Positions 7,857 to 59,800 of a DNA stretch of 64,000 nt are shown one piece after another. Position 1 is the stretch's first letter. Each line of letters begins with the position of its first letter. Made by a program: the position numbers and the translations under genes. This DNA comes from Neisseria sp. Ec49-e6-T10 (GTDB lineage: Bacteria; Pseudomonadota; Gammaproteobacteria; Burkholderiales; Neisseriaceae): assembly GCF_051132615.1 (NCBI RefSeq), contig NZ_CP152375.1, forward strand, positions 1,278,859 through 1,342,858. The letters run 5' to 3'. The notes under the pieces were generated by a model. It had not been told where the DNA came from. It saw only the letters and a program-made list of their open reading frames with translations, and ran no database searches.

Positions 7857-8572
7857 CAAATATAATGCTCCAATAATCAAACCAGCTAGAAATTAGCTGG
7901 TTTTGTTTTATCCAAACCATCATCCAATCAAATAAAAATGTGTCCAAATATTCAGAATAAACTCCGCCAAATCGGATACATTATTTCATATAGATAGAAT
8001 TCATTTCAGGTAGAGTTATAACTTACTTAGAACCACAAAAACAATAAAAACTGAAACGTTAATAGTCAGTAACCTAACGGAAATATTAAGGAATTTTTTA
8101 TTTTATAAAAAAAAAGAATGTTTAGAAAATAACTGATTACTCATTTATGCTAAACATTCTCGTTAAATTAGTGATATACTAAGGGAGCTTTTACGACCAT
8201 AAAGTATAAAACCTTGTTAACAAAAAACCTAAATAAGCCTTAAAACACATAACAAAACAAAGACTTTACTATATGATTATTTAGGGCGTGACAAGATATC
8301 TGCTTTTCACATAAGCGGAATATCTTCATGATAAAAATACATGTTTGAGATATGAATAATCTATGACAATAAATCAATCAACATGACAAACATAAATTTA
8401 TATCATGTACGCATAATAGTTGTAACCGTAAATTTTGTCAATAGGTTACAACGTATTTTTCAAAATTGATGTTGAGAAAATTTTAATCATTTGAAAACAA
8501 TATATTTTTATGAGTCGATAAAGATGAAACTTTTAGTTAACTATTTTAAAACCAATATAAAAAGTCTCAACT

Positions 8573-15292: not shown

Positions 15293-16720
15293 ATGAATGA
15301 TCACGTTGCAACTATGGATGTAAATAATTTCTGGTCAGCTTGTTTAGGCCAGCTTGAGGCAGATCTGTCTCCACAACAATTTAATACCTGGATTCGGACT
15401 TTAGCTGTCAGTGCTGATGACGAGAACTGGTTATTGTTGGTACCCAATCGTTTTATGTTGCAATTTATTAAAGAACGCTTTTTTGATCGCATTGATGCGA
15501 TTCGTGTTGAACTTGCCCCTACTTCACCCGAGCTTTTATTAAGGGTCAATGCACCACAAACACAAAGCAGTAAAACGGCAACAAACACAATTGCTCAAAA
15601 AAACAACAAAACCCAAGACAAGGCTGACATAAAAAAAAATCAGCCTCGGCCAACCCAAGAGCCTACATTGGGCAACTTACCTAAACGTAGCTTAGAAAAA
15701 GCACGTTTAAACCCTATTTACACATTTGATAATCTGGTGACAGGCAAAGGCAACCAACTGGCTCATGCCGCAGCATTACAAATTGCAGAAAACCCAGGTG
15801 ACAGTACCTACAATCCCATGTTTATTTATGGTTGTACAGGCCTAGGTAAAACCCATTTAATACAAGCAATTGGTAATAAAATCCATCAACTAAAACCTGA
15901 TGCGAATATTCGTTACATTCATGCTGAACGTTACGTGGCTGATATTATGAAGGCTTTTAGGGAAAAAGCTTTTGATGAATTCAAACGTTATTACCACTCT
16001 TTAGATTTATTATTGATTGACGACATCCAGTTTTTTGCAGGCAAAAACCGAACCATGGAAGAGTTTTTCTATGCGTTTAACGCTTTATTAGACAGCAAAA
16101 AACAAGTGGTCATTACCTGTGATACTTATCCTAGCCAAATTGATGGAATGGATGACCGCCTTAAGTCACGTTTTTCTTGGGGATTAACGGTTGAAATTCA
16201 ACCACCTGAATTAGAAATGCGGGTCGCCATTTTGCTGAAAAAAGCCATGGCAGAAAATGTTAAATTAGATAATGATGCGGCTTTTTTTATTGCGCAAAAT
16301 ATCCGCTCTAATGTGCGAGAACTAGAAGGCGCTTTCAAACGGGCGCTGGCAGTGAGCCGCTTTCAGTCAAAACCGATTACCTTAGAGTTAGCAAAAGAAG
16401 CTTTAAAAGATATTTTAGCTGTGGTACAAAGACAAATTACCATTGAAGGCATTCAAAAAACAGTGGCAGACTACTACCGTATTAAAGTATCTGACCTGTT
16501 AGGTAAAAAACGGACAAGAAATATCACCCGTCCGCGCCAGTTGGCAATGGCACTGGCAAAAGAATTAACCACACAAAGTTTACCAATGATTGGCAATGCT
16601 TTTGGGGGACGAGATCACACAACCGTGATGCACGCTTGCAAAACTATTGCTGATTTAAAACAAACCGATCCAAATATTGCACAGGATTTTGACACTTTGG
16701 TGTCTATCCTAAGAGATTAA
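15293..16720 (+). CDS. dnaA: chromosomal replication initiator DnaA
   Basis: AAA+ Walker A GCTGLGKTHL, C-terminal DnaA signature ...RPRQLAMALAKELT...GGRDHTTVMHA; start may be the second Met at 15314. Confidence 0.95.
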   Translation: MNDHVATMDVNNFWSACLGQLEADLSPQQFNTWIRTLAVSADDENWLLLVPNRFMLQFIKERFFDRIDAIRVELAPTSPELLLRVNAPQTQSSKTATNTIAQKNNKTQDKADIKKNQPRPTQEPTLGNLPKRSLEKARLNPIYTFDNLVTGKGNQLAHAAALQIAENPGDSTYNPMFIYGCTGLGKTHLIQAIGNKIHQLKPDANIRYIHAERYVADIMKAFREKAFDEFKRYYHSLDLLLIDDIQFFAGKNRTMEEFFYAFNALLDSKKQVVITCDTYPSQIDGMDDRLKSRFSWGLTVEIQPPELEMRVAILLKKAMAENVKLDNDAAFFIAQNIRSNVRELEGAFKRALAVSRFQSKPITLELAKEALKDILAVVQRQITIEGIQKTVADYYRIKVSDLLGKKRTRNITRPRQLAMALAKELTTQSLPMIGNAFGGRDHTTVMHACKTIADLKQTDPNIAQDFDTLVSILRD

Positions 16721-16749
16721 CTGGCTAAAAATTAAGAGGGAAACCTGTT

Positions 16750-17853
16750 ATGCTGATTTTACAAACTGAAAAAGACTCACTACTTAAGCCTTTAAAAACG
16801 GTAACAGGCATTATTGAACGCCGCCATACCTTACCGATATTATCCAATGTCTTAATTGAAAACAAAGGTGGTAAAACCTCTTTACTCAGTACCGACTTAG
16901 AAATTCAGATTCACACAACAGGGTTTGAATCGCAAGCGGAAGATTTTCGTTTGACCACAAATGCAAAAAAATTACAGGATATTTTGCAGGCTTTACCAGA
17001 CAGCTCTTTAGTCTCTCTTGATTTAGCCCAAGATCGTGTGACTTTAAAAGCAGGAAAAAGCCGCTTTAACTTACAAACATTACCAGCAGATGATTTTCCT
17101 TTATTGGCAGTAGATGACGAAGTATCAGCTTGTTTTAGCATCAACCAAAACGTACTCAAACAAATGCTCTCACAAGTGCAATACAGTATGGCGGTGCAAG
17201 ACATCCGTTATTACTTAAATGGTTTGCTGATGCAAGTTGAAGGCAATCGCTTAAACCTTGTGGCAACCGATGGTCATCGTTTGGCTTTATCCAGTGCCAC
17301 AATTGATGCCGACTTACCCAAAGCAGAAGTCATTTTGCCACGAAAAACCGTGTTGGAATTGTCTAAGTTACTGAGCCAACCAGATGAAGACATCACCATT
17401 GAGTTACTGAACAATCAGGTACGTTTTCGTTGTGGTGAAAGTGTGATTGTCAGCAAAATTGTGGATGGCAAATTCCCAGACTACAAACGTGTGATCCCAT
17501 TAGACAATGACAAAATTTTCTTGGTTGGTCGCACTCAGTTATTAAGCGCATTAGAGCGTGCCGCTATTTTAGCCAATGAAAAATTCCGTGGCGTACGTTT
17601 ACTGATTAAACCTGGTATTTTAAGCATTGTGTGTAGCAACAATGACCAAGAAGAAGCCCAAGAAGAAATCGAAATTGCCTATCAAGGTGAACCATTGGAA
17701 ATGAGCTTTAATATTGCATACCTAATGGATGTCTTGCGTAATGTCCCTGTGGACAACTTACAACTGGCTTTTGGCGATGCGAATCGCTCAAGTCTGTTCA
17801 CCATCCCTGAGTATGCAGACTTCAAATACATCGTGATGCCAATGCGCATTTAA
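16750..17853 (+). CDS. dnaN: DNA polymerase III beta sliding clamp
   Basis: 367 aa, three-domain clamp, ends ...MPMRI; AGAGGGA RBS. Confidence 0.93.
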   Translation: MLILQTEKDSLLKPLKTVTGIIERRHTLPILSNVLIENKGGKTSLLSTDLEIQIHTTGFESQAEDFRLTTNAKKLQDILQALPDSSLVSLDLAQDRVTLKAGKSRFNLQTLPADDFPLLAVDDEVSACFSINQNVLKQMLSQVQYSMAVQDIRYYLNGLLMQVEGNRLNLVATDGHRLALSSATIDADLPKAEVILPRKTVLELSKLLSQPDEDITIELLNNQVRFRCGESVIVSKIVDGKFPDYKRVIPLDNDKIFLVGRTQLLSALERAAILANEKFRGVRLLIKPGILSIVCSNNDQEEAQEEIEIAYQGEPLEMSFNIAYLMDVLRNVPVDNLQLAFGDANRSSLFTIPEYADFKYIVMPMRI

Positions 17854-17857
17854 CGAT

Positions 17858-17898
17858 AAGGGTTGGGCACCCCCAACCCTTTACTATTGTTTTTTTTG
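17858..17898 (+). terminator. GC-rich hairpin plus T8 between dnaN and gyrB
   Basis: AAGGGTTGGGcacCCCAACCCTT 10-bp stem, then tactattg then TTTTTTTT. Confidence 0.55.
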
Positions 17899-17910
17899 GA
17901 ATCGAGATAA

Positions 17911-20307
<2,397 letters not shown>

Positions 20308-20328: not shown

Positions 20329-20367
20329 ACAAGCCCATATTTATAATAGAATATGGGCGTTTTTTAT
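20329..20367 (+). terminator. rho-independent terminator after gyrB
   Basis: AAGCCCATATttataatagaATATGGGCGTTTTTT. Confidence 0.75.
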
Positions 20368-20570
20368 AAGTTGTTTCACATTAATGTTAAGCTAAAAAGC
20401 GTTCTTTTTTCCATCGTATAATGAAGCCAATGAAATGTATTTGCTTGCTGTTATCCAAAAGATCATCATGATTATTTTTAATTGCTTGTAAAACAAAATC
20501 GAAAAAGTCTTCAGATAAACTATTGGCATAAAAAATTATAAAATCTATTTCAAAAGAAGCTTCCTATAAT

Positions 20571-20882
20571 TCAGTTTTCAATATAACTTTCTGCGATATT
20601 AATATCTTTAGTCATATCCAACTCTGGAAATTTTTTATCTAATTTTCTCAAACAAGCGATGAATCGTTCACTTTGAAGTTTTTCAGAGATATCTTCAAAA
20701 ATTTCACTGATGAAATATAAATCATCTTCTTTACTTTCCTCAAGATAATGTATTGTCTCATCCTCATTTTGAGTTAATAATTCGGTCATGTCATTCCAAC
20801 ACTTTTCAATTCCAAAATCATCATTCAAACTCAAGCTTTTTCTCTTTTTTAAAATTGTTGCCATACAGTCTTTTAGTTCCAT
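20571..20882 (-). CDS. small acidic protein, candidate immunity protein for the upstream toxin
   Basis: 103 aa; starts 26 nt after the toxin stop on the same strand; acidic C-terminus (EDETIHYLEESKEDDLYFISEIFEDI); no homology recognised. Confidence 0.5.
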   Translation of the reverse strand: MELKDCMATILKKRKSLSLNDDFGIEKCWNDMTELLTQNEDETIHYLEESKEDDLYFISEIFEDISEKLQSERFIACLRKLDKKFPELDMTKDINIAESYIEN

Positions 20883-20907
20883 TTTTTATTCCTAACAATT
20901 TATTTTT

Positions 20908-23064
20908 TTATGGTTGCTTTGTTGTATCTGGGAAAATAGTTGCTAGCTTTCCATCAGTTTTTATTATTCCAATTCGAACGCCTCTATATTCTCCAAAAAC
21001 AGCCTCACCATCTTTTATATCTGCAAAGTTTGATTGGTTAGCGATATGTTGTCCTGCATTTTCGATATCCTTATTCGTCCAATTTTCAGGGAACCAAGAT
21101 TGATTATTTCCTGTTCTTTTCGCCTTAATTTTATGGTCTGGTACATTTCCAATCCTAACACCATTAGGATAAGTTTTTTCGATATTTACTTCCAACCCAT
21201 TTTCTTTGAGAAAATCAATGTTAGATTGACCATGACCTCCTCCTTTCATTTTAGATATTTCTCCTGTGGAAGGGTTGACAGTAAAATCTCCAATATCTGC
21301 ATGTTTTAAACTTTGCTCTGGAATTTCCACTTTAGCAATGACCCCACTAGCTTTTTCAACTGCACCTAATTTTCTTTCTAAGTTAATGGTATTGTTTGTA
21401 TCATGTAAGGCATCAGCAGCCTTAGATAAATTCTTAGCATTCTTAGTCATACCCAAAGGAGCGACAGCAGCTAATACCTCAAAGCCAATTTTGCCATCCA
21501 TTCTACCCGATTCATCATACTTTCCTGCCACTTTAAGCTGTTGTACCTGTTCCTGACGATCTGTCAACATCCCATTAACACCTTTTATGAATTCATCAGG
21601 ATGCGCTGAATAATACATCGTCTGACCTGTAGCAGAACCAGCTAAAAAGCCTACTGAATTGAACAGACTATTCATCCGTTCATTATTCCGATGAATACTT
21701 TCTCTGGCTGCTGTTTGGTCATATAAGCCACCTAACAGCGAATAACCTACTGTATTGAGGATATCCTTAGACAATAAATTAGCATCATTTACCATCTCTT
21801 TTAAGCCACTGAGCATAGACTCATTAGCCCCTTTACTATAGGCTGCTTGTTCTACTTCTGTTAACGGTTTACCCTCATAATTGGTCATTTTCATGATAGG
21901 CATCACGCTTGGTTGTGCTGTAAGAGGACGAATATTAGATAAAGGCACATTTTGGGCGGTATTGTTTACCCACTGTAATGCCTCTACTGTATTGATTGAT
22001 TTATCTGAACGATTAACAGCAGCCTGTAATGTTTCACTCTGACTGAATTTATGCATAGCAGCAACTGAAACACCTTTATTAATTAAACTGTGTTCTTGAT
22101 AACGAGATAATTGTTCTTTAATAACACTTTCTAGTTCTTGTTTACTTAAACCATTTGCCATATTGGGATTATTGGCTACTTGATTATTGATATTTTGAAA
22201 GAGTTGAGTTATTTGGGTTTGTTGCTGTAAGTTAGGATTTCGTTCTCTTTGTTCTTCTAATGCTTGAGCTCTAGCCAGATCAATATGTTCATTGGCTAGG
22301 CTTTGACCTGTAACAATTTGACGTCCTGCTTGTTCATTTTTGGCTTGTTGCTCTTCTGTATATTGGCTACGGTCATAGGTATATTCTTTATTGGGTTGAA
22401 TATTAGGAATAATGTGTTGATTGCCATCTTTGAGCTTGATGTCTTTTATCTGTCCTGATCGATACAAAACCCCTAAAGCTTCATATGGATGCTCTGAGTC
22501 TAATTTTTGCGCCAAACTCCAGCCAGTATCGCCTTTTTGGGCAATGATTTTATGTTCAGTATTTTCTGGTTCTAATTGTGTTTCAACAGGTTTTTTTATG
22601 CTGTCTTCTAATGGCTCTCCAGCTATAATTTTTGGTGTGGATAGATTGAACTGTTCATTCTGTTTCCCTAAATTAAGCTGAATTTCTTCTTGATTAATCT
22701 GTAACTGATTAATTTTAGGCGGATCACCAGCATAATCATGTGTAACAAATCCTACGGCTTCTTTTAAGATGTATTGTTCTTTTGGGGTAAATTCAGATAA
22801 TTGTTTGTCTACTTGATGATTGTTCATCTGTTGAACAATCTCTTTTAATCTTCCTTTAGGTGGATAGGAACGATTAAAATGTTCACTAATCAGCTCTTGT
22901 TCTTTGTTTAGTTTCTCAGGGGCTTTTTCTGGTGCTTTAGCTTGTAATAATTCTTTATCGACACTTAACCCATGTTTTGCTAGAGTTTCTTCTACATTTA
23001 CAAAGGCATATTTATTGTTGCCTATATTAGCCATTAAACAACCTGTTTGAGGGCTGTAATACAT
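20908..23064 (-). CDS. polymorphic-toxin-like protein with nuclease-like C-terminal domain; N-terminal region Gln-rich; upstream in-frame extension interrupted by TAA
   Basis: 718 aa; the C-terminal 130 aa (GGGHGQSNIDFL...PDHKIKAKRTG...SWFPENW...QHIANQ) has conserved His/Lys in an arrangement reminiscent of RNase-type (EndoU-like) toxin tips; followed by a small gene; same frame stays open upstream to ATG 23319 except for one TAA at 23218..23220. Confidence 0.6.
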   Translation of the reverse strand: MYYSPQTGCLMANIGNNKYAFVNVEETLAKHGLSVDKELLQAKAPEKAPEKLNKEQELISEHFNRSYPPKGRLKEIVQQMNNHQVDKQLSEFTPKEQYILKEAVGFVTHDYAGDPPKINQLQINQEEIQLNLGKQNEQFNLSTPKIIAGEPLEDSIKKPVETQLEPENTEHKIIAQKGDTGWSLAQKLDSEHPYEALGVLYRSGQIKDIKLKDGNQHIIPNIQPNKEYTYDRSQYTEEQQAKNEQAGRQIVTGQSLANEHIDLARAQALEEQRERNPNLQQQTQITQLFQNINNQVANNPNMANGLSKQELESVIKEQLSRYQEHSLINKGVSVAAMHKFSQSETLQAAVNRSDKSINTVEALQWVNNTAQNVPLSNIRPLTAQPSVMPIMKMTNYEGKPLTEVEQAAYSKGANESMLSGLKEMVNDANLLSKDILNTVGYSLLGGLYDQTAARESIHRNNERMNSLFNSVGFLAGSATGQTMYYSAHPDEFIKGVNGMLTDRQEQVQQLKVAGKYDESGRMDGKIGFEVLAAVAPLGMTKNAKNLSKAADALHDTNNTINLERKLGAVEKASGVIAKVEIPEQSLKHADIGDFTVNPSTGEISKMKGGGHGQSNIDFLKENGLEVNIEKTYPNGVRIGNVPDHKIKAKRTGNNQSWFPENWTNKDIENAGQHIANQSNFADIKDGEAVFGEYRGVRIGIIKTDGKLATIFPDTTKQP

Positions 23065-23655
23065 TAATTTAATATTGATATGATCACTACGCCCACTTTT
23101 AAGGGCAACATCTTGAGCTAAGCCTTCAAAGACAGCTTCTTTTTGTTCTGGATTTAATTTACTTAGATTGTGAGTATATTCGCTTTGATTAAACTCTTTT
23201 TGAACTTCTTGATTGGCTTAAGGCAATTTTCTTTGAGCCAGCTCTAAAGCTTCTTGCTCTTGCAATAGTCGTTGTCTCTCTTGAAACTCTTGATTAACAT
23301 CTAGCTGCAACTCTTCCATACACAAGCCAAATCAATATTGTTATGAAAATAGCAATTATACGCATAGTTGTAACACAAAACCATGAAATTTAATTTATTT
23401 ATTTCCAAAACAATATTGATTATTGTTATTTTTCGGAAAATTTGCTGGTTCATTCTAAAGCTGTTTATACAGTAAACTTGCTACGCAGATACTTTCAATC
23501 TCTTTATAAATACTGTTTTTATTATTTTAATGATAATGGTATATATTACTCAATACAGAATATGCTGTTTATCTTATTTTTATATTTCTTTGACTTGTGT
23601 GTTATATTAAATTCATTATCTATATAATGAATTTAATCAGTCATAACGAAGAAAA

Positions 23656-24282: not shown

Positions 24283-24293
24283 GGTTATTGATG

Positions 24294-24752
24294 ATGAAAG
24301 CTGTCTTACAAAGAGTGAGCCAAGCCCATGTAGAAATTGATGGCGAGGTTGTAGGCAAAATTGGCTATGGATTGTTGATTTTATTTTGTGCGGAACAAGC
24401 AGACACACAATTGGATGCAGATAAAATGCTCGCAAAAATTTTAAAGCTGAGAATTTTTTCTGATGATGATGGCAAAATGAACCGAAGCATCTTGCAACTA
24501 GATGGACAAGATAAAATGGGGGAACTGTTAATAGTAAGCCAATTTACTCTTGCCGCAGATGTGCGTAGTGGTAACCGCCCCAGTTTTACCAAAGCTGCCC
24601 CTCCCCAATTGGGTCAAGAATTATATGAATACTTTGTGGGTAAAGCCAAAGAAAGTATTGAGCATGTGGCTACAGGGCAGTTTGGCTCAGATATGAAAAT
24701 ACACTTGGTCAATGATGGCCCTGTCACGATTATTATGGATTCAAATGCTTAA
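24294..24752 (+). CDS. dtd: D-aminoacyl-tRNA deacylase
   Basis: MKAVLQRVSQAHVEIDGEVVGKIGYGLLILF... and C-terminal SQFTL...NDGPVT motif. Confidence 0.9.
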   Translation: MKAVLQRVSQAHVEIDGEVVGKIGYGLLILFCAEQADTQLDADKMLAKILKLRIFSDDDGKMNRSILQLDGQDKMGELLIVSQFTLAADVRSGNRPSFTKAAPPQLGQELYEYFVGKAKESIEHVATGQFGSDMKIHLVNDGPVTIIMDSNA

Positions 24753-28889: not shown

Positions 28890-30518
28890 TCAAGTTGAGT
28901 GTTGTTTGATTTTTTCCCAACTTAAATCGAATTTGGCCAAATATTTACGTAACCGATCTGAATCGTTACTCACTTGTTTGTGTGCTCTGGAGATAGCAAA
29001 TAACCGCCGCCCAGCTTCTGCCAAGGTAGGCGATTGCATGCACACATCTATCACCTGTTTAAGCTGACACTGATCAAATAAATCAAGTTGATCAGGTATT
29101 AATGCAGAGTATTGGGCTTTTATAGCGCCCTCTTCTTGCCAGTTTTGACTTAAACGCTCAATTTCTGTTTCAACCAATTCATTGGTAATATTATTGTGTT
29201 GTGCCAAAGTCGCCATTCTGGTGACAGATGCGGTTAATTCTCTAAAATTGCCTTGCCATAAGGCTTTATCCGAAGTGGCAAAGCGAAGATAGTGCGTTTT
29301 GGCCTCTTTATTAAAACGAGGCATTTTTTTATACTCTCGAGCAAAACGAGCCAGTTCATAATCTAGGTTAGGCTCTATGTCTTCTTTTCTTTGTGCCAAA
29401 CTTGGCAAAGCATAATGCCATAAGTTAATACGGGCAAATAAGTCTTCCCTAAAGAGCCCTTTACGCACTAAATTTTTTAGGCTTTTATGGGTACCTGCAA
29501 TAATTTGGAAGTCACTTTTAACTTCTTTATCGGCACCAAATGGATAAAATTTCTTCTCTTCTATGGCTTTAAGCAGCATGGCCTGTTCATCTAAACCAAG
29601 CTCGCCAATTTCATCTAAAAACAACATGCCTTTATCGGCTGACTTTAATAAGCCAGATCGCTCTTTTTCTGCTCCTGTAAAAGCCCCTTTTACATGCCCA
29701 AACAAAGTGGACATGGCACTGTCCCCACGCAAAGTAGCGCAATTGACTTCAACAAAAGGGCCATGTATTTGATGTTGTTGCACCTTTAATTCATAAATTC
29801 GTTTGGCTAAAAAGGATTTACCCGAACCTGTTGGCCCTTCTAATAAAATAGGTGCACACGAACGCTTAGCAACAATTTCTAATTCATCAATCAGTTGGTT
29901 GAATGTTCTATTTTTGGTGGCGATACCTGATTTTAAATAATCGGTTGCTTGAGCAGAGTACTGCTCAAAACGAGTGAAGATCTGATCATATCGATTTAGG
30001 TTTAAATCAATTTGGGTAATTTGCCCTAATGGGCATCGACTCATTATGTCCTCTTGTGTCTGTTCTTCACTAGACGCTTGGATCGCTTTGTTCGGGGGAG
30101 AAGCTTGTAATAATTTAGCGGGAAAAAAACGAGCCTCTGCCAATAAAAACCAGCAAATTTGTACCACATGAGTCCCTGTGGTGATGTGAATAGTGTATTC
30201 TTCTTGCTCTAAATTAAATGGGTAACGCTTAGCCAAATCGAATAAAACGGTATAAACCTGTTCAAAGTCCCAAGGGTCATCAATGGTCACTTCAATTAAA
30301 TTGATTTCAACATTAGGGGCAATATCTTTTATGTCTTCAACAACTCGGCGAGCCAATGCGGTGTCTTTACGGTGATAAAGCAATTCTAAACGATCAGCTT
30401 GTCCATGTTCTACTCGACAAATATCAATGGTTGGCCGCCAACGTAACCAGCGTCGTTTGCCTTTGCCTGTTTGATCTAAATTACTGCCTAAAAAACCAAA
30501 TATTACTTTTTTCATCAT
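28890..30518 (-). CDS. rtcR: sigma-54-dependent transcriptional regulator RtcR (CARF-like N-domain, AAA+ domain, HTH)
   Basis: 542 aa, collinear with E. coli RtcR (MMKKVIFGFLGSNLD..., GPTGSGKSFLAKRI, GAFTGA, ESELFGH-like region, C-terminal ...RLRKYLAKFDLSWEKI). Confidence 0.92.
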   Translation of the reverse strand: MMKKVIFGFLGSNLDQTGKGKRRWLRWRPTIDICRVEHGQADRLELLYHRKDTALARRVVEDIKDIAPNVEINLIEVTIDDPWDFEQVYTVLFDLAKRYPFNLEQEEYTIHITTGTHVVQICWFLLAEARFFPAKLLQASPPNKAIQASSEEQTQEDIMSRCPLGQITQIDLNLNRYDQIFTRFEQYSAQATDYLKSGIATKNRTFNQLIDELEIVAKRSCAPILLEGPTGSGKSFLAKRIYELKVQQHQIHGPFVEVNCATLRGDSAMSTLFGHVKGAFTGAEKERSGLLKSADKGMLFLDEIGELGLDEQAMLLKAIEEKKFYPFGADKEVKSDFQIIAGTHKSLKNLVRKGLFREDLFARINLWHYALPSLAQRKEDIEPNLDYELARFAREYKKMPRFNKEAKTHYLRFATSDKALWQGNFRELTASVTRMATLAQHNNITNELVETEIERLSQNWQEEGAIKAQYSALIPDQLDLFDQCQLKQVIDVCMQSPTLAEAGRRLFAISRAHKQVSNDSDRLRKYLAKFDLSWEKIKQHST

Positions 30519-30833: not shown

Positions 30834-30909
30834 ATTTTGAATAGCTCAATAGGTAGAGCAGTTGATTATTAATCAACCTGTCATAGGTTCGACTCCTATT
30901 TCAAAAACC
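30834..30909 (+). tRNA. tRNA-shaped RNA element (76 nt perfect cloverleaf, anticodon AUU, encoded CCA); probably a Y-RNA/YrlA-like tRNA mimic in the rtc leader rather than a decoding tRNA
   Basis: Acceptor TTTTGAA/TTCAAAA (6 AU + 1 GC pairs), D arm GCTC-AATAGGTA-GAGC (A14, G18G19, A21), anticodon arm GTTGA-TTATTAA-TCAAC, 5-nt variable loop, T arm ATAGG-TTCGACT-CCTAT (T54 T55 C56 A58 C61), discriminator A, CCA; sits about 180 nt downstream of the sigma-54 promoter. Confidence 0.7.
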
Positions 30910-31208
30910 AAAATTGCCCTGTCTCGGCAAATGCTTAGGGTGCATTTAAAAGTAGTAAAAAAGCTGTACTACAGACTGACGCCGTGTTGTGGTAGGGAAC
31001 AAATGCCACAACAAGCACAAGAATACCGGTTATAGGTAACTGGATGATTGGCAAGCGAACAGATTGATATAGGTTCTTCTATATCGTGACATGAAGAAAA
31101 AATACGGTCATGAACAACTTATATCAGCTTTTGTTTCCCTTTTATTTCGTTTTATCACCCGTCATTTTTGTGTGGCTGAGGTCAATATTTTAAAAGGATG
31201 AATATAAA

Positions 31209-32831: not shown

Positions 32832-34055
32832 ATGAGTAAATATCAAGTATTAAAAAATGAACAATGCAACCCCATTAAAATGTGGACAGAAGGCGTACCT
32901 GTTGAAGAAGATGCAAAACAACAATTATTGAACACGGCCTCTATGCCTTTTATATTTAGCCATATTGCGGTCATGCCTGATGTGCATTTAGGTAAGGGTT
33001 CAACCATTGGCAGTGTGATCCCGACTAAAAATGCCATTATTCCTGCAGCAGTTGGTGTGGATATTGGTTGTGGCATGATGGCTGTACGAACATCATTAAC
33101 AGCAAATGATTTACCTGATCATTTGTATGCCATACGCAGTGCCATTGAACAAGCGGTGCCTCATGGAAGAACCGTCAGCCGCAATACAAAACGAGACAAA
33201 GGCTCTTGGCAACAGCCTCCTCAGTTGATCGATCAATACTGGGCACAATTATTGCCTGGGTTTGAAAAATTAACCCAAAAACACCCTAGATTTAAAAATA
33301 CCAACCACTATAAACATTTAGGTACTTTGGGTACAGGCAATCATTTTATTGAACTGTGTTTAGATGAAAACGATCAAGTATGGGTGATGTTGCATAGTGG
33401 CTCACGCGGTGTAGGCAATGCCATTGGTTCTTATTTTATTGAGTTGGCGCAAAAAGACATGGAAGGCCATCTTGGCAACTTACCTGATAAAAATTTAGCG
33501 TATTTCCCAGAAGGAAGCGAACACTTTGATGACTATTTTGAGGCGGTCGGTTGGGCACAAGAATATGCCCGTTTAAATCGAGAAGCCATGATGAATCATG
33601 TGTTACTGGCGATAAAATCGGTGATTACCAAGCCATTTAAAACGGATTTAGAGGCGGTTAATTGCCATCATAACTATGTGCAAAAAGAAACTCATTTTTC
33701 AGAAGAAATTCTGGTCACACGTAAAGGTGCTGTTTCTGCCCAAAAGGGGCAATTGGGGATTATTCCTGGTTCTATGGGGGCAAAAAGTTATATTGTGCGT
33801 GGTTTGGGTAACGAGCAAAGTTTTTGTTCTTGTTCTCATGGCGCAGGCCGTGTAATGAGTCGAACAGCCGCAAAAAAACGCTTTACAGTGGCCGATCAAA
33901 TTGAAGCAACAGCTCATGTAGAGTGCCGTAAAGATGCTGCGGTGATTGATGAAATCCCCATGGCTTATAAAGACATTGATGCGGTTATGGCAGCACAAGA
34001 TGATTTGGTTGAAATTGTGCATCAGTTAAGACAGGTTGTGTGTGTTAAAGGGTAA
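32832..34055 (+). CDS. rtcB: RNA-splicing ligase RtcB (3'-phosphate/5'-hydroxyl RNA ligase)
   Basis: 407 aa, collinear with RtcB (…HSGSRGVGN…, metal-binding His/Cys, C-terminal CSHGAGR nucleotidyl-His region). Confidence 0.92.
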   Translation: MSKYQVLKNEQCNPIKMWTEGVPVEEDAKQQLLNTASMPFIFSHIAVMPDVHLGKGSTIGSVIPTKNAIIPAAVGVDIGCGMMAVRTSLTANDLPDHLYAIRSAIEQAVPHGRTVSRNTKRDKGSWQQPPQLIDQYWAQLLPGFEKLTQKHPRFKNTNHYKHLGTLGTGNHFIELCLDENDQVWVMLHSGSRGVGNAIGSYFIELAQKDMEGHLGNLPDKNLAYFPEGSEHFDDYFEAVGWAQEYARLNREAMMNHVLLAIKSVITKPFKTDLEAVNCHHNYVQKETHFSEEILVTRKGAVSAQKGQLGIIPGSMGAKSYIVRGLGNEQSFCSCSHGAGRVMSRTAAKKRFTVADQIEATAHVECRKDAAVIDEIPMAYKDIDAVMAAQDDLVEIVHQLRQVVCVKG

Positions 34056-52288: not shown

Positions 52289-54004
52289 TCACCCCATCAG
52301 ATTAGGCGCATACTGATAAAGATTATCCCCACCCAATAATCCAATAGGATCCTGATTACTAAACCGTCCACTATCCGCATCATAATAGCGCATTAAATTA
52401 TAATGCAATCCCGTCTCAACATCATAATACTGATTTTGAAACCTAAACGGTTGATGACCTTGATGTAGGTTATGCTCTTCGGCTATTTTTCCCCAAGTTT
52501 GGTATTTCGCATACCAAATCAACTCCCCTTTTTCATCGGTTAACTCTTTGGGTAAGCCTACTTGATCTGTATGTAGGTAATTAATAACTATATTTTCACC
52601 AAGACTAATAAATGCTAAGGGAACAAAATTTTCTAATGATCTATCAGTACCTGCTACAGAAATCTCACTACCATAAATATATACAACGCTTCTTTCATAA
52701 CTTCTCTCTTGCAGTAACCGTGCGCCATCCCAAACAAATTCAGTTTTGTTTTCTAGGGTGTTCTTGCTGATTTGTTCTTTTCTGATTCTGCGTCCAAATA
52801 CATCGTAAATGTATTGCCAGTTTTCTTTTGTGCCTTTTTTATCAGTAATAGTGGCTTGTTGTAACTGTTGATTCAGGTTATAACTTAGCTCTAAGGTTCT
52901 ATCCTTCGCTTCTTTCCTCACCATATTACCCAGCTCATCATAATGGTAGGCGATCCCTTGATATGTTTGCACTCGGTTGGCGTGTTTGTCTATGGGTGAG
53001 ACTCCTGGGTCATCTTTTAATGGTGACCATGTCGGGTCACTGAGCATTTGCTCATAATAAGCTTTGTCTTTTATGGGTTGTTTGGGCTTAGGCTGGCTGT
53101 TTTCTTGCGCATCAATAATATTATGCGCTGGGTCAAAGGCAAATAGCTCTTGCCCTGCTTGGGTAATACGCCCTATTTTGTCATAAACGTATTGTAGACT
53201 GCTGCCTCTATTGTCTGACATTCGGGTTAAGTTACCCGCTTTATCGTATTGGTAGCTACGTTTAACGGGGCCACTGGCAATCAGCAGCTTATTTTTGTTT
53301 TTAAGGTCTAAATCTTGTTCAAATGAGGCAACTTGTTGTTTGATGCGCCCCATTGGGTCTAAATCGTAGAAGCTGGTTAGTTTACCTTGGCTGCGGCTGA
53401 TTTCTCGATGTAAGTCGTCCCGCTCAAAATCGCTGATCACTTTGCCGTCTATATTGATTTGGTGTAAATGGCCGCTACCGTAATAGAGGTAATTGATGGT
53501 TTGCCCTGTGGGCAATACGGTGGCAATACGGTTGCCTAACTCATCGTAAAAGTATTGCACTGTTTTGGCGGCGTTGGGGTCTAAAAAGGTTTCTTCTACG
53601 AGGGTTTGTGGGTCTAAATCGTAAGTGCGCTCACAAATCAATTGCCCTAATGGGTCATAATCCAGTTGTATCAGGCTATGTTCGTTTTTGGCTTGAATCA
53701 GTTGATTCAGTTCATTGTATTGGAATGTACTGTGTAGCTCCTGCGCACTTTGGCTGTCATGGGCATTTTTGGCGGTCAGTTGCCCTAAAGCATCACGCTC
53801 GTAGGTTTTTTGGATCAAGGCATTCAATTGGGTTAAATCGACATTGGGGTGATTGACTTGCCCGTAGAGTTTTTCTTGTACCAGTTCTGAGGCTAAGTTG
53901 TAATGGTAGCCGGTGGCTTTGCCATCAAAGCCAATTTCGCCAATTAGGTTATCCAGTATATCGTATCGTAGTGATATTGTTCGGTACTGCTGTAATAACA
54001 ACAA
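52289..54004 (-). CDS. orphan Rhs/YD-repeat fragment (no N-terminus, toxin tip deleted: ends …QYAPNLMG*)
   Basis: 571 aa of YD repeats; about 340 aa identical to residues of the main rhs gene; stops inside the PxxxxDPxGL core so no toxin domain. Confidence 0.8.
   Translation of the reverse strand: MLLLQQYRTISLRYDILDNLIGEIGFDGKATGYHYNLASELVQEKLYGQVNHPNVDLTQLNALIQKTYERDALGQLTAKNAHDSQSAQELHSTFQYNELNQLIQAKNEHSLIQLDYDPLGQLICERTYDLDPQTLVEETFLDPNAAKTVQYFYDELGNRIATVLPTGQTINYLYYGSGHLHQINIDGKVISDFERDDLHREISRSQGKLTSFYDLDPMGRIKQQVASFEQDLDLKNKNKLLIASGPVKRSYQYDKAGNLTRMSDNRGSSLQYVYDKIGRITQAGQELFAFDPAHNIIDAQENSQPKPKQPIKDKAYYEQMLSDPTWSPLKDDPGVSPIDKHANRVQTYQGIAYHYDELGNMVRKEAKDRTLELSYNLNQQLQQATITDKKGTKENWQYIYDVFGRRIRKEQISKNTLENKTEFVWDGARLLQERSYERSVVYIYGSEISVAGTDRSLENFVPLAFISLGENIVINYLHTDQVGLPKELTDEKGELIWYAKYQTWGKIAEEHNLHQGHQPFRFQNQYYDVETGLHYNLMRYYDADSGRFSNQDPIGLLGGDNLYQYAPNLMG
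52289..54004. repeat. Rhs core repeat copy A (paralogue of about 57150..58870; exactly identical block about 53120..53830 = 57981..58691)
   Basis: Identical antisense ORFs 53608..53856 and 58469..58717 prove at least 249 nt identity; by-eye alignment extends perfect identity to about 710 bp with 90-95% flanks. Confidence 0.8.
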
Positions 54005-54078
54005 AATCTCTCCGAACGTTAATAGACCAACTTTAAACCATAGCTTTCCTCAATTATCAACAATAATAGTAATCGAAT

Positions 54079-54660
54079 TTATTCGATTACTATTTTAAAA
54101 TTAGAATTATTTCTACAATATTTTAAAAAACTAATACTACTTTCTCTATCATTATTAAGAGCAATACATCCAAACCCTGTATCATCATGAGGATACACTG
54201 CAATATTAAGCTCAGGATTAATATAAAAACAAACCTGCCCGATAATACCAGAATGACTCATCATGAGTTTAGAAAGCATAATAAAATGATCATAATTAAA
54301 ACTAAAATCTAATGAACTAATTGGTAAAGAGCTATCACCATATAAATAGCTCTCAAAACTATCACTCATTGTTTTTAAGATTCCATTTTTTATAAAAAAT
54401 AAAAATGCATCATTATATTCTGCGAGAATTTCAGGATCACTCTCCGTTTTATCATCAAAAGATAATGCTGTCATGATAAAGAAATTATTATACTTACCAA
54501 AATAATCATCAAACATACTTACAGATTCTTGTACAATTTCAGAAGAATAACCATTTAACCGTTCAAAATATCCCACCCATCCTTTAGATGTACTGAATCC
54601 ATCGAAATTAAAATCCTCGAGTGAAACTTTTTTATCTATCAATTTTAATAATTTTTCCAT
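54079..54660 (-). CDS. immunity protein cognate to orphan Rhs toxin tip 2
   Basis: 193 aa, overlaps the 3' end of the orphan rhs fragment by 29 nt, as is typical for rhs toxin/immunity pairs. Confidence 0.6.
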   Translation of the reverse strand: MEKLLKLIDKKVSLEDFNFDGFSTSKGWVGYFERLNGYSSEIVQESVSMFDDYFGKYNNFFIMTALSFDDKTESDPEILAEYNDAFLFFIKNGILKTMSDSFESYLYGDSSLPISSLDFSFNYDHFIMLSKLMMSHSGIIGQVCFYINPELNIAVYPHDDTGFGCIALNNDRESSISFLKYCRNNSNFKIVIE

Positions 54661-55866
54661 CGCTTATCCCTACAGTTATCTTTTTGCTTTTATTAGGTGC
54701 AGACTTACCTATACCAACTTTCCATTCACCTGCTTTATCAGAGTGTGTAGTATGACTTTTACTCCATATTTCATTTGTGTGTTTATTTTTCCAATTTCCT
54801 TTATTTGCACGAGTAAAATCAGAAGGATGGGAAGTTGGTGTTCTCACAACATCGCCGACATTAGCATTATTAACTTTCTTTTTAGGATCGTCTAAATAAC
54901 ATTTAAACCCCCAAGGATCAATCCACCCCATCGGATTAGGCGCATACTGATAAAGGTTCGTCCCACCCAACAACCCAATCGGATCCTGATTGCTAAACCG
55001 CCCACTGTCCGCATCATAGTAACGCATTAAGTTATAATGCAGCCCTGTCTCAGCATCGTAATACTGGTTCTGGAACCTAAACGGTTGGTGACCTTGGTGT
55101 AGGTTATGCTCCTCGCTTACTTTACCCCAGGTCTGATATTTTGCATACCAAATCAACTCACCTTTTTCGTCGGTAAGCTCTTTAGGCAAACCGACTTGGT
55201 CTGTATGCAAGAAGTTTATTTGTGGCTCTTCTTGCTCTGGCTCTAATACGATTTGCGCTAAGGGTTCAAATCCTTCCTCTCGATAAATATAAGTAAAGGT
55301 TCGTTTATCGGTGCTTTCTTGTAATAACCGTGCACCATCCCATACAAATTCGGTTTTCTTTTCTATGACGTTATTGCTGATTTGTTCTTTTCTGATCCTG
55401 CGTCCAAAGACATCATAGGTATATTGCCAGCTTTCTTGTTTCTCTATTTTGCTATTGTGCGTTATATTCGCTGTAATTAATTGCTGGTTAAGGTTATAAC
55501 TCAGCTCTAAGGTCTTATCCTCCGCCTCTTTCCTCACCATATTACCCAGCTCATCATAATGGTAAGTAATCCCTTGATAGCTTTGCACTCGGTTGGCGTG
55601 TTTGTCTATGGGTGAGACTTCGGGGTCGTCTTTTAACGGTGACCATGTCGGGTCACTGAGCATTTGCTCATAATAAGCTTTGTCTTTTATGGGTTGTTTG
55701 GGCTTAGGTTGGCTGTTTTCTTGCGCATCAATAATATTATGCGCTGGGTCAAAGGCAAAGGTTTCTTGCCCTGCTTGGGTAATGCGTCCTATTTTGTCGT
55801 AAACGTAGCGTAAATTGTTGCCTCTGATGATATATCTATTATTTTTAAAACCCCATCTTTCACACC
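54632..55866 (-). CDS. orphan Rhs C-terminal fragment with alternative toxin tip (DPWGF-KCYLDDPKKK…); 5'-truncated, no start codon (first Met at 55663)
   Basis: Frame open from 55866; homologous to the main rhs 3' region (…RYVYDKIGRITQAGQ… …DPIGLLGGTNLYQYAPNPMGWIDPWGF) then a unique 100-aa C-terminus. Confidence 0.75.
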
Positions 55867-55896
55867 TCTAAACTTGGTCAGTATGCAGGTAATTTA

Positions 55897-56289
55897 CTAT
55901 ATTACTCCAAAATCCAATTCATCATAAACACATATACACCACGTTTCTTTCTTTCCAAGTAGATAGTTTTCTCCAGGATAATCCGTTAAAAATTTAAGAA
56001 CCAGCCTCAAAGCTGAAAAATCAATTAAATATCCTTGCTCGAAATCATAGCCAAATAAAATAATTTGCTGAGTGTCATTTATAGGGTACAATTGTTGAAT
56101 CATAAAGTAAAATTCGTCTACCTCAGCAATATTTTTCCTTTCATGTAAACTTAACTGACTCCAAGCAATTCTAGAACCCACAAAAGGAAATTTTTCCATA
56201 TTTGTATACCCATCAATTTCGTCATCAGCTAGAATAGAAAAAGTAATTCCCTCTCGTTCAGCAAATTCTATAAATTCTAAATCGTACAT
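55897..56289 (-). CDS. orphan immunity-like protein
   Basis: 130 aa acidic protein flanked on both sides by short rhs remnants (56340..56395 and 55860..55896). Confidence 0.5.
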   Translation of the reverse strand: MYDLEFIEFAEREGITFSILADDEIDGYTNMEKFPFVGSRIAWSQLSLHERKNIAEVDEFYFMIQQLYPINDTQQIILFGYDFEQGYLIDFSALRLVLKFLTDYPGENYLLGKKETWCICVYDELDFGVI

Positions 56290-56521
56290 ATTAACCTCTA
56301 ACGTCCAAATCTTCTCTGAATTTTTGTAACAGTTTTTGTGGTTTTTACCACTTCGGTTTTGTTTTCTATAGCGTTATTACTGATTTGTTCTTTTTTATTA
56401 AATTGTTGATTACTTATTTAAGAAAAGTATCCAATTTAAATTTTAATCGAACCTCTTCTATATTTTTAAGCACAATATTTCAAAAGGACTATTTTTGTTG
56501 TAACAAGGGCTTATCAAGTAA

Positions 56522-56854
56522 TTAATTTTCTATATGATCCAGCATTAACATAATTTCATTTTTGGATTTATCGTAAGGAGGCTTCCATAGTTGGCAATCC
56601 TCTTCTAACCAATCATCATATTCAGATGGAGAGATATTTTTTTGCAGTTCTTTATACAATACTTTTCTGGTAAAGGATAATTTATCTAAAACTTTTTTCT
56701 CTTTAAAAAATAATAAAAGTGCCATGGACATGGTTTCCCTATCTAAGAAACCAGAAGCAATTTTATCTACTACTGTTACAATTTCTTCAAGATATAAGGT
56801 TGAAGTTTTAACATCATTAATGTTTAATTTATTATCATTTTTCAATTTAGCCAC
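56522..56854 (-). CDS. immunity protein cognate to main Rhs toxin
   Basis: 110 aa, start overlaps the rhs stop by 8 nt. Confidence 0.6.
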   Translation of the reverse strand: MAKLKNDNKLNINDVKTSTLYLEEIVTVVDKIASGFLDRETMSMALLLFFKEKKVLDKLSFTRKVLYKELQKNISPSEYDDWLEEDCQLWKPPYDKSKNEIMLMLDHIEN

Positions 56855-59800
56855 ACCTTTTCACAAATTTAGTTGTTTTTTCATCTAATTCAACATCACC
56901 TTTTATTTTATACTCTTCTACGCCTAAATCATTCTTCCTAAACTCTACTCTGTTTTCATCTATGTCAAAATCTATATAATTTCTAGCGTGATTTTGTTTT
57001 ATTTTAAATTTATCTGCAGCATCAGCCATACTGAAGGGCTTTCCTTTTGCTTTTGTTGCAAAAACAGCATTTTGATCACCAGCCTTAATCACCATACTTT
57101 GTTTTATTCCTTCAAATCCCTTATTACTTGTATAGTGTCTTAATCTAATTAGAGCAAGTCCAAAAGGATCAATCCACCCCATCGGATTAGGCGCATACTG
57201 ATAAAGATTCATCCCACCCATCAACCCAATCGGATCCTGATTACTAAACCTTCCACTATCTGCATCATAGTAACGCATTAAGTTATAATGCAGTCCTGTC
57301 TCAGCATCGTAATACTGGTTCTGAAATCTAAACGGTTGATGACCTTGGTGTAGGTTATGCTCTTCGGCTACTTTTCCCCAAGTTTGGTATTTCGCATACC
57401 AAATCAACTCCCCTTTTTCATCGGTTAACTCTTTGGGTAAGCCTACTTGATCTGTATGTAGGTAATTGACTTGTGGTTCTTCTTGCTCTGCCTCTAATAC
57501 GATTTGTGCTAAAGGCTCAAAACCCTCTTCTCGATAAATATAACTAAAGGTTCGTTTATCTACTTTTTCTTGTAATAATCTTAAGCCATCCCAAATAAAT
57601 TCAGTTTTATTTGTAGATGCATTATTGTGGATTTGTTCTTTTCTAATCCTGCGCCCAAACACATCGTAAGTATATTGCCAGTTTTCCTGTATGCTTTTTG
57701 TGTCAGTAATGGTAGCTTGTTCTAACTGTTGATTCAGATTGTAACTTAGCACTAAGGTTCTATCCTTGGCTTCTTTCCTCACCATATTACCCAATTCATC
57801 ATAATGGTACGTAATCCCTTGATAGCTTTGTACTCGATTGGCTTGTTTGTCTATAGGGGAAACTTCTGGGTCGTCTTTTAACGGTGACCATGTCGGGTCA
57901 CTGAGCATGTGCTCGTAATAGGCTTTGTCTTTTATGGGTTGTTTGGGCTTAGGTTGGCTGTTTTCTTGCGCATCAATGATATTATGCGCTGGGTCAAAGG
58001 CAAATAGCTCTTGCCCTGCTTGGGTAATACGCCCTATTTTGTCATAAACGTATTGTAGACTGCTGCCTCTATTGTCTGACATTCGGGTTAAGTTACCCGC
58101 TTTATCGTATTGGTAGCTACGTTTAACGGGGCCACTGGCAATCAGCAGCTTATTTTTGTTTTTAAGGTCTAAATCTTGTTCAAATGAGGCAACTTGTTGT
58201 TTGATGCGCCCCATTGGGTCTAAATCGTAGAAGCTGGTTAGTTTACCTTGGCTGCGGCTGATTTCTCGATGTAAGTCGTCCCGCTCAAAATCGCTGATCA
58301 CTTTGCCGTCTATATTGATTTGGTGTAAATGGCCGCTACCGTAATAGAGGTAATTGATGGTTTGCCCTGTGGGCAATACGGTGGCAATACGGTTGCCTAA
58401 CTCATCGTAAAAGTATTGCACTGTTTTGGCGGCGTTGGGGTCTAAAAAGGTTTCTTCTACGAGGGTTTGTGGGTCTAAATCGTAAGTGCGCTCACAAATC
58501 AATTGCCCTAATGGGTCATAATCCAGTTGTATCAGGCTATGTTCGTTTTTGGCTTGAATCAGTTGATTCAGTTCATTGTATTGGAATGTACTGTGTAGCT
58601 CCTGCGCACTTTGGCTGTCATGGGCATTTTTGGCGGTCAGTTGCCCTAAAGCATCACGCTCGTAGGTTTTTTGGATCAAGGCATTCAATTGGGTTAAATC
58701 GACATTGGGGTGATTGACTTGCCCATACAGTTTTTCTTGTACCAGTTCCGAGGCTAAGTTGTAATGATAGCCTGTGGCTTTACCATCAAAGCCAATTTCA
58801 CCAATCAGGTTATCGAGGATGTCGTACTGAAAATAGTAGTTGTCTTTGTTTTCATTGGTCAGGCGATTTAAACGTCGAGCCAAATCATAATGGTAATGAA
58901 ACTGATGCCCTAATGCGTTGGTACGCATAATGGGTAAACCATCTTGGCTATATTGGTATTCAGTCGGGTTGCCTAATCCATCTAAATGTTGAATCAGCCG
59001 CCCAGCTTCATCGTAATGATATTGTTCGGTACTGCCGTCAGGGTAACTGATTCGGGTTAAATGGTTTTGCTCATTATATTGGTAATGAGTGTTGTAGCCT
59101 AAGGCATCAATCACACGTATCAAATTGCCTTTGGCATCGTAATTAAGTTCTGTACGTTTTTGCGAACAATCGGTTAAGGCAATAAGTTGATGCTTATGAT
59201 CATATTCTAGCTGGGTTTCACCACCTTTGGCGTTTTGGATCACCACAGGTAAACCTAGGTGGTTATACTGGTATTCCGTCACATTTTTTTTGCTATCGGT
59301 AACAGTCAGCAGGTTGCCTTTTTCATCATAGGTGTAATCGGTGCTGTTGCCTTGTGCATCAATGACTTCTTGCAACTGGTATTGTTCATTGTAGGTGTAA
59401 TTGGTGGTTTGCCCCAAAGCATTGGTGATGCTGTTAATTTGTCCTTCTAAGGTATAGGTATAGCGGGTCTCTCGCCCTAAAGCATCTGTTTCCAGTAAAA
59501 CGCGACCATAATTATCCCGTTCTGTCTCGATCAATACATCATCATAGCGTTTATGGGCAATGATTTCTCGATTAAAGTCATACACAAAGGTTTCTTCGCG
59601 CCCTAATGGGTCGGTCACAATGGTATGCCCAGGTTGATAATCAAAATACCAGTGTTCGTCTAAACTGGTAAAGTTATGCAGTACCCTGCCTTCTTTGCTG
59701 TATTCATCATATTCATATTGCGATACATAACCTGCTGCATTTTGGTGTTTGATCATCACATGATTGCGATACGCAAATTGCCGTGTCACCACCCCTTGCG

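Follow-up and report, generated by a model that had tools for sequence, protein, structure and literature searches.

Downstream of gyrB in the 64-kb window (by which we mean the whole stretch of 64,000 nucleotides from the chromosome of Neisseria sp. Ec49-e6-T10 that was analysed) lies a predicted toxin gene and, beside it, a small candidate immunity gene. The locus is a nonsense-interrupted gene of 803 codons, of which a 718-aa open reading frame (ORF) is the remainder. We read it as a member of a polymorphic toxin family of Gram-negative bacteria that is newly recognised and very narrow in its distribution, and whose full-length members a type IV coupling protein would recruit for contact-dependent injection into neighbouring bacteria; our estimate for this joint reading is a probability of roughly 0.45. 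The family appears to serve interbacterial antagonism. The initial annotation of this DNA had described a 718-aa minus-strand ORF with an acidic 103-aa ORF next to it, and both exist as described. It had not noticed the ~16 tip-swapped paralogs, the Firmicutes origin of the toxin tip and its immunity gene, the structured N-terminal modules that weakly resemble a type IV secretion signal, or the 85 codons and premature stop upstream of the 718-aa ORF. The features on which the argument depends are:

20908..23064, minus strand: the 718-aa ORF (predicted toxin)
20571..20882, minus strand: the 103-aa ORF, separated from the 718-aa ORF by 25 nt
20908..23319, minus strand: the full ancestral toxin gene of 803 codons, whose translation aligns with paralogs P0002-P0007 from the first codon
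23218..23220, minus strand: an in-frame TAA at codon 34, where the paralogs have Glu within 'QKAPE' or 'QKLPE'
20926..21264, minus strand: the EndoU_bacteria nuclease domain (Pfam PF14436), ORF residues 601-713
20569..21354, minus strand: the tip and immunity cassette held in common with Firmicutes, at 82% nucleotide identity over 761-790 bp

The family is extremely rare. When the whole 718-aa ORF was searched against 5.8 billion proteins, only seven relatives were returned, six of them in Neisseria sp. Ec49-e6-T10 itself. An exhaustive hidden Markov model (HMM) search of 1.84 billion representative proteins with an N-terminal profile yielded 13 representatives, which lead to ~16 loci in Ec49-e6-T10 (three of these being short fragments); further members are three genes in the insect-gut bacterium Zophobihabitans entericus and two on short metagenome contigs. 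No relatives of the family were found in viral contigs or in JGI metagenome contigs, and when paralog P0006 was searched against plasmids with tblastn, its HNH tip alone was matched and no relatives of the family appeared. The paralogs are scattered around the Ec49-e6-T10 chromosome with a few small clusters, an order deduced only from consecutive GenBank protein accessions and validated on the gyrB, immunity and toxin genes.

The relatives share their N-terminal ~650 residues and differ in their tips, which among the paralogs are EndoU (two more copies), Endonuclea_NS_2, WHH/Colicin-DNase, of an HNH type or unassigned. P0003 is one paralog with an EndoU tip. The HNH tip of P0006 (residues 612-754; outside the window) is 57-63% identical to plasmid records of Anoxybacillus and Persicobacter. 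The copy in the window is a mosaic: over residues 1-80 it shows 60-72% identity to every paralog, over residues 81-520 it matches P0002 at 100%, and past residue 520 the identity to P0002 decays, ending in an unrelated tip. Because residues 81-520 are 100% identical to P0002, the alignment indicates recent gene conversion between paralogs. Such mosaicism together with variable tips is the signature of a polymorphic toxin system; a common N-terminus is joined to unrelated tips, and the immunity gene lies directly downstream and travels with the tip.

The tip of the window copy is predicted to be an EndoU-family ribonuclease (RNase), and its toxicity would be that of an RNase. An RNase-type tip, possibly EndoU, had been suggested in the initial annotation, and a Pfam search of the C-terminal region bears this out, with EndoU_bacteria matching well above its curated cut-off (E=3.1e-16; 60.3 bits vs a cut-off of 25.3; profile positions 11-128 of 129). 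His611 (in GGGHG), His644 and Lys645/647/649, which are present in the domain and conserved in the Firmicutes homologs, are candidates for its catalytic His/His/Lys set. EndoU is the only Pfam family to reach its cut-off in the window toxin. The protein had been thought to have neither a signal peptide nor a standard trafficking domain, and this too holds: PAAR, Rhs, VENN, TPS and MIX all stay under threshold in Pfam, and inspection of the 718-aa sequence reveals no signal peptide. A comparison of the toxin and the immunity protein with PDB sequences gave nothing meaningful.

The 103-aa protein is strongly acidic (pI 4.43; 26 D+E vs 14 K+R) and has no match in Pfam, NCBIfam, PDB or PADLOC. Homologs do exist, in 79 clusters that come nearly all from Listeria, Enterococcus, Carnobacterium and Bacillus and are 60-85% identical, and the toxin tip has the same distribution (60-84% identity). 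In our reference loci, Listeria L006 and L007 and Carnobacterium L004 (protein identity 76-85%), the homologs sit directly downstream of the same EndoU tip, at a distance of 18 nt where the window has 25 nt. In Listeria the cassette supplies the tip to an LXG / PT-TG / EndoU toxin, the 103-aa gene following downstream, while in Carnobacterium it is an orphan cassette within an LXG toxin/immunity array. Because this linkage of tip and small gene is kept across phyla, the 103-aa ORF is very likely the cognate immunity protein, as its position had initially suggested, and would neutralise the EndoU tip.

The likeness extends to the DNA, where the match runs from ORF residue ~571 to the immunity stop codon; tip and immunity gene were transferred jointly, as one 786-bp segment. 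GC content is ~0.40 in gyrB but only 0.25-0.29 in the immunity gene and in the DNA downstream of that gene, against a window mean of 38%. These observations indicate that the cassette was transferred between phyla, and its donor is taken to be the Firmicutes pool (the LXG toxins of Listeria, Enterococcus and Carnobacterium), because the distribution is overwhelmingly Firmicutes and the GC content low. More than one tip of the toxin family may have come from distant phyla.

Homology to the paralogs does not begin where the 718-aa ORF begins, but runs on in frame upstream of Met86 to an ATG at 23319, with tblastn alignments to 23316/23319 unbroken across the stop. The TAA at 23220..23218 is the sole interruption of the frame between Met86 and that ATG. 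As the paralogs align across it, with Glu in its place, the ancestral gene is one of 803 codons that now carries a nonsense codon. Between the TAA and Met86 (23064) there is no in-frame ATG, GTG or TTG. The product must begin at Met86 or later, and the first of the N-terminal modules described below (module A) is therefore incomplete; the 718-aa ORF and the gene as annotated by NCBI (708 aa, start 23034; P0001, 100% identical over 99% of the query) both begin inside it. At best, the window copy makes a protein that lacks module A, while module B, the pre-toxin junction and the toxin are intact in the 718-aa ORF.

The window copy is thus probably crippled or decaying, with immunity still conferred. 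The chances are about equal that it is a working weapon or a non-functional relic, in which the nonsense codon kills export and only the immunity gene still matters, perhaps along with the cassette as a recombination reservoir or template; a relic would fit any delivery route of the intact paralogs. The broken first ααβββ module (TAA at codon 34, no start codon before Met86) favours a relic, as do a possible gene remnant downstream and the 5' 255 nt, which have diverged from all paralogs whereas the core is 100% identical to P0002. However, the 718-codon frame is wholly open, module B, junction and toxin included, and the identity of residues 81-520 to a paralog may mean that the copy is recent. 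Internal initiation is possible, and so is a one-base sequencing or assembly error; that the TAA was read from a single assembly counts against the interruption itself.

From N- to C-terminus, the family plan appears to begin with a long helix and two or three ααβββ modules of ~70 residues in tandem; a conserved LysM-like segment comes next, then a helical linker with a pre-toxin junction, then the swappable toxin, followed by the immunity gene. In the window these parts are:

22975..23172, minus strand: module A, helix-helix-three strands-helix, XVIPCD-like (gene residues ~50-115; AlphaFold2 model)
22624..22857, minus strand: module B, ααβββ plus a short helix, a repeat of module A (gene residues ~155-232)
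22372..22551, minus strand: the most conserved segment of the family, β-α-α-β, in which invariant columns cluster (ORF residues 172-231)
21355..22371, minus strand: a helical, partly Gln/Asn-rich linker, modelled as helical with low confidence
~21385..21552, minus strand: a PT-TG-like pre-toxin junction, at the end of the linker

The N-terminal half had initially been taken for a Gln/Asn-rich region of low complexity. This view does not stand, as only ORF residues 251-300 are Gln/Asn-rich (36%) and the remainder holds conserved, confidently modelled domains. A first model of 660 residues had a predicted local distance difference test (pLDDT) score of 51 overall, with moderate confidence for residues 1-360, and a Foldseek search with it returned only noise. 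A trimmed AlphaFold2 model covering residues 43-242 of the window copy reached a mean pLDDT of 82.9 and contains two alike modules, each made of two helices on a three-stranded antiparallel sheet and then a short helix. Profile-profile comparison also identifies modules A and B as repeats (76.6% probability, E=2e-5, 65 columns), and some paralogs have three such modules. The conserved segment that follows has a pLDDT of 77-84 in the first model; its only sequence match is to the NCBIfam LysM protein YneA, a weak one (E=0.31), with Pfam LysM unmatched, and we regard the LysM reading as tentative. The junction aligns weakly with the pre-toxin region of a Listeria LXG toxin, and in the Zophobihabitans relative P0008 it comes close to the Pfam PT-TG cut-off (23.4 bits vs 23.5).

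Type IV delivery is the best-supported route for the intact family members, although in our judgement it falls somewhat short of an even chance. We infer recruitment by a type IV coupling protein because the N-terminal modules most resemble XVIPCD, the domain through which effectors of antibacterial type IV secretion dock on VirD4, the coupling protein. Support comes from three independent signals, each of them weak. Module A of P0006 and P0009 matches Pfam X-Tfes_XVIPCD (E=0.007 for the whole protein, 7e-4 for the isolated module; 20.4 bits), the only Pfam family matched by more than one of 20 isolated modules. The published topology of XVIPCD is ααβββ (PMC8740702), as in the modelled modules, and in structural comparisons with the window modules the two solved XVIPCD-bearing structures rank first and third. 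Antibacterial X-T4SSs (type IV secretion systems) and their effectors have been documented in Neisseriaceae (PMC6536674). Of the three family genes in Zophobihabitans, one is found 3.4 kb downstream of traD, which encodes the coupling protein of an integrative and conjugative element (ICE) of the PFGI-1 class; the second is next to an integrase and a leftover piece of that ICE gene set, and the third is next to an integrase and genes of defence type.

Other observations speak against this route. The best score lies below the X-Tfes_XVIPCD cut-off (24.9), and the matches are confined to P0006 and P0009, two closely related paralogs; the window copy itself has no Pfam match to this family. Foldseek gives the structure 7mu9 an E-value of only 1.5, and the module profiles did not retrieve XVIPCD from PDB sequences, returning only chance-level matches to tautomerase, tubulin-tyrosine ligase and ferritin. 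The XVIPCDs known so far lie at the C-terminus and depend on a C-terminal tail, while the modules of this family are N-terminal. There is no type IV secretion gene in the 64-kb window, and the proximity to ICEs in Zophobihabitans may merely be cargo carriage. The fuller proposal is that the family represents a new class of type IV-delivered polymorphic toxins with an inverted architecture, in which tandem N-terminal XVIPCD-like modules bind the coupling protein and swappable C-terminal tips have come straight from the Gram-positive LXG/type VII pool, the family being carried partly on ICEs; we consider this possible but doubtful.

Upstream of all three Zophobihabitans genes are members of a ~145-aa protein family (L001 9412..9855; L002 6666..7103; L003 7402..7839 and 8065..8502), in L001 immediately upstream of the toxin family gene. 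It has no Pfam or PADLOC match and no homolog in the window, and may act as a chaperone or adaptor, or may be an orphan immunity protein.

A different export machine would be the type VI secretion system (T6SS), the toxin being a cargo effector whose novel N-terminus binds VgrG, Hcp, a PAAR protein or an adaptor. MIX, FIX or RIX domains play such a role in other orphan effector/immunity operons, and orphan effector-immunity pairs distant from the T6SS cluster are common, which counts in favour of this route. The same window holds tssH/clpV (60951..63674), a PAAR-like Rhs toxin with an ADP-ribosyltransferase tip, and orphan Rhs fragments. However, these genes are unlinked and more than 30 kb away, Pfam detects no marker domain (PAAR, VgrG, Hcp, MIX or Rhs) in any family member, and the three Zophobihabitans copies are found beside ICE or integrase genes, none of them having a T6SS gene close to it. 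We consider T6SS delivery unlikely.

Export without any dedicated secretion signal, as in colicin- or S-pyocin-like diffusible bacteriocins, would have the N-terminal and central regions serve in receptor binding and translocation ahead of the C-terminal nuclease, with the acidic immunity protein bound in the producer. The protein does have a long, helical central region and no signal peptide, the family has nuclease tips (one matching Pfam Colicin-DNase), and the immunity gene is tightly linked and encodes an acidic product. Yet Pfam reveals no colicin or pyocin receptor or translocation domain, and there is no small lysis ORF. What is seen instead, ~16 paralogs within a single genome and a junction of the PT-TG type, is typical of contact-dependent polymorphic toxins and makes a diffusible bacteriocin quite improbable.

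We regard it as very improbable that the two genes encode an intracellular module, whether toxin-antitoxin or anti-phage abortive infection, and no exported weapon. The layout is that of a toxin gene next to its antidote gene, with an RNase toxin, in AT-rich, island-like DNA. However, a toxin-antitoxin pair would have no use for a conserved 650-aa N-terminus with swappable tips, in Listeria the identical cassette is found at the end of secreted LXG toxins, and the anti-phage version is without support because no PADLOC family matched either protein.

Among known systems, the closest mechanistic model is offered by the X-Tfes (XAC2609, TfcB, TfdA), the effectors of Xanthomonadales-like antibacterial type IV secretion systems. 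They too are antibacterial toxins with an adjacent immunity gene, are dispersed over the chromosome and contain an ααβββ module, and one of them, TfdA, combines nuclease activity with a long central region whose function is unknown. However, X-Tfes have a single, C-terminal XVIPCD followed by a Gln-rich tail, with the toxin at the N-terminus, whereas the window family has its toxin at the C-terminal end and its modules, in tandem, at the N-terminal end (gene residues ~50-232). When the sequences are roughly compared by eye, most of the conserved XVIPCD residues are not evident in the window family. We did not assign the family to the X-Tfes, as both the profile threshold and the C-terminal position failed.

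The LXG / PT-TG toxins of Firmicutes, which use type VII secretion, have the same EndoU tip and immunity cassette, a similar pre-toxin junction and the same immunity position. The window toxin differs in having no LXG domain (no LXG match at E<=1) and an unrelated stretch of 570 N-terminal residues, and its host is Gram-negative, without a type VII system. MafB, CdiA-CT and Rhs toxins resemble the family in that a conserved delivery region carries a variable C-terminal nuclease tip, an immunity gene lies downstream, paralogs or orphan copies are numerous, and the copies recombine with one another; EndoU tips also occur in MafB and CdiA. In contrast, the window toxin has no signal peptide and no MafB, TPS/FHA/VENN, Rhs or PAAR domain in Pfam, and its N-terminal family is confined to two species and two metagenome contigs. 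As no defining domain is present, membership of the MafB, CdiA and Rhs families was ruled out.

Polymorphic toxins shape bacterial coexistence, and what defines each known family is its N-terminal region, through which it plugs into a secretion machine. The toxin tip of this locus is ordinary, but its delivery region, extreme rarity and expansion within one genome are not. The near-intact move of a tip/immunity cassette out of the Gram-positive LXG pool is also unusual; at 82% DNA identity with Listeria and Carnobacterium, it is a clear case of a toxin cassette moving between Gram-positive and Gram-negative bacteria and being re-used behind a wholly different delivery region. If the N-terminal modules are indeed coupling-protein docking domains, antibacterial type IV effectors would gain a second, modular architecture, and with it a concrete handle for finding such effectors. 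Type IV delivery, if true, would also mean that conjugation-type machines are armed with interchangeable toxins that cross phylum boundaries.

The pair had been placed between the gyrB terminator and dtd, and this position is as described, with a hairpin on one side and dtd on the other. The flanking features are:

20333..20358: a bidirectional terminator-like hairpin, common to gyrB (which ends at 20307) and the toxin/immunity pair
20387..20563, minus strand: a startless open frame of 58 codons with 25% GC, between the immunity gene and the gyrB terminator
24288..24752: dtd

A 208-aa ORF with no family match sits between the toxin locus and dtd. The 58-codon frame matches none of the fetched loci and may be what is left of another cassette gene. 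Shuffled sequence has promoter-like sites at least as often as this region does. On the gyrB side of the toxin locus, the origin-region genes run in the order dnaA-dnaN-gyrB (15293..20307), with recF not between dnaN and gyrB. The GC content of the window is well under the usual Neisseria values, and the strain could be a member of another Neisseriaceae genus.

The Rhs toxin mentioned above (56847..60899, minus strand) is PAAR-like, has an ART-HYD1 ADP-ribosyltransferase tip and lies directly downstream of tssH. It is followed by two orphan Rhs C-terminal fragments (54632..55663 and 52289..54004, minus strand), and the small ORFs between them may be immunity genes; the whole Rhs stretch spans 52289..60899.

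Elsewhere in the window, a tRNA gene at 30835..30910 (plus strand; Rfam 68 bits), identified by ARAGORN as tRNA-Asn with an ATT anticodon (loop ttATTaa), lies between the divergent rtcR (28890..30518) and an SPFH/Band_7 gene, after which comes rtcB (32832..34055). The SPFH/Band_7 gene and rtcB may form one operon, and the tRNA may therefore be the first gene of an RtcR-controlled RNA-repair operon. Just upstream of this tRNA is a second T-arm-like sequence.

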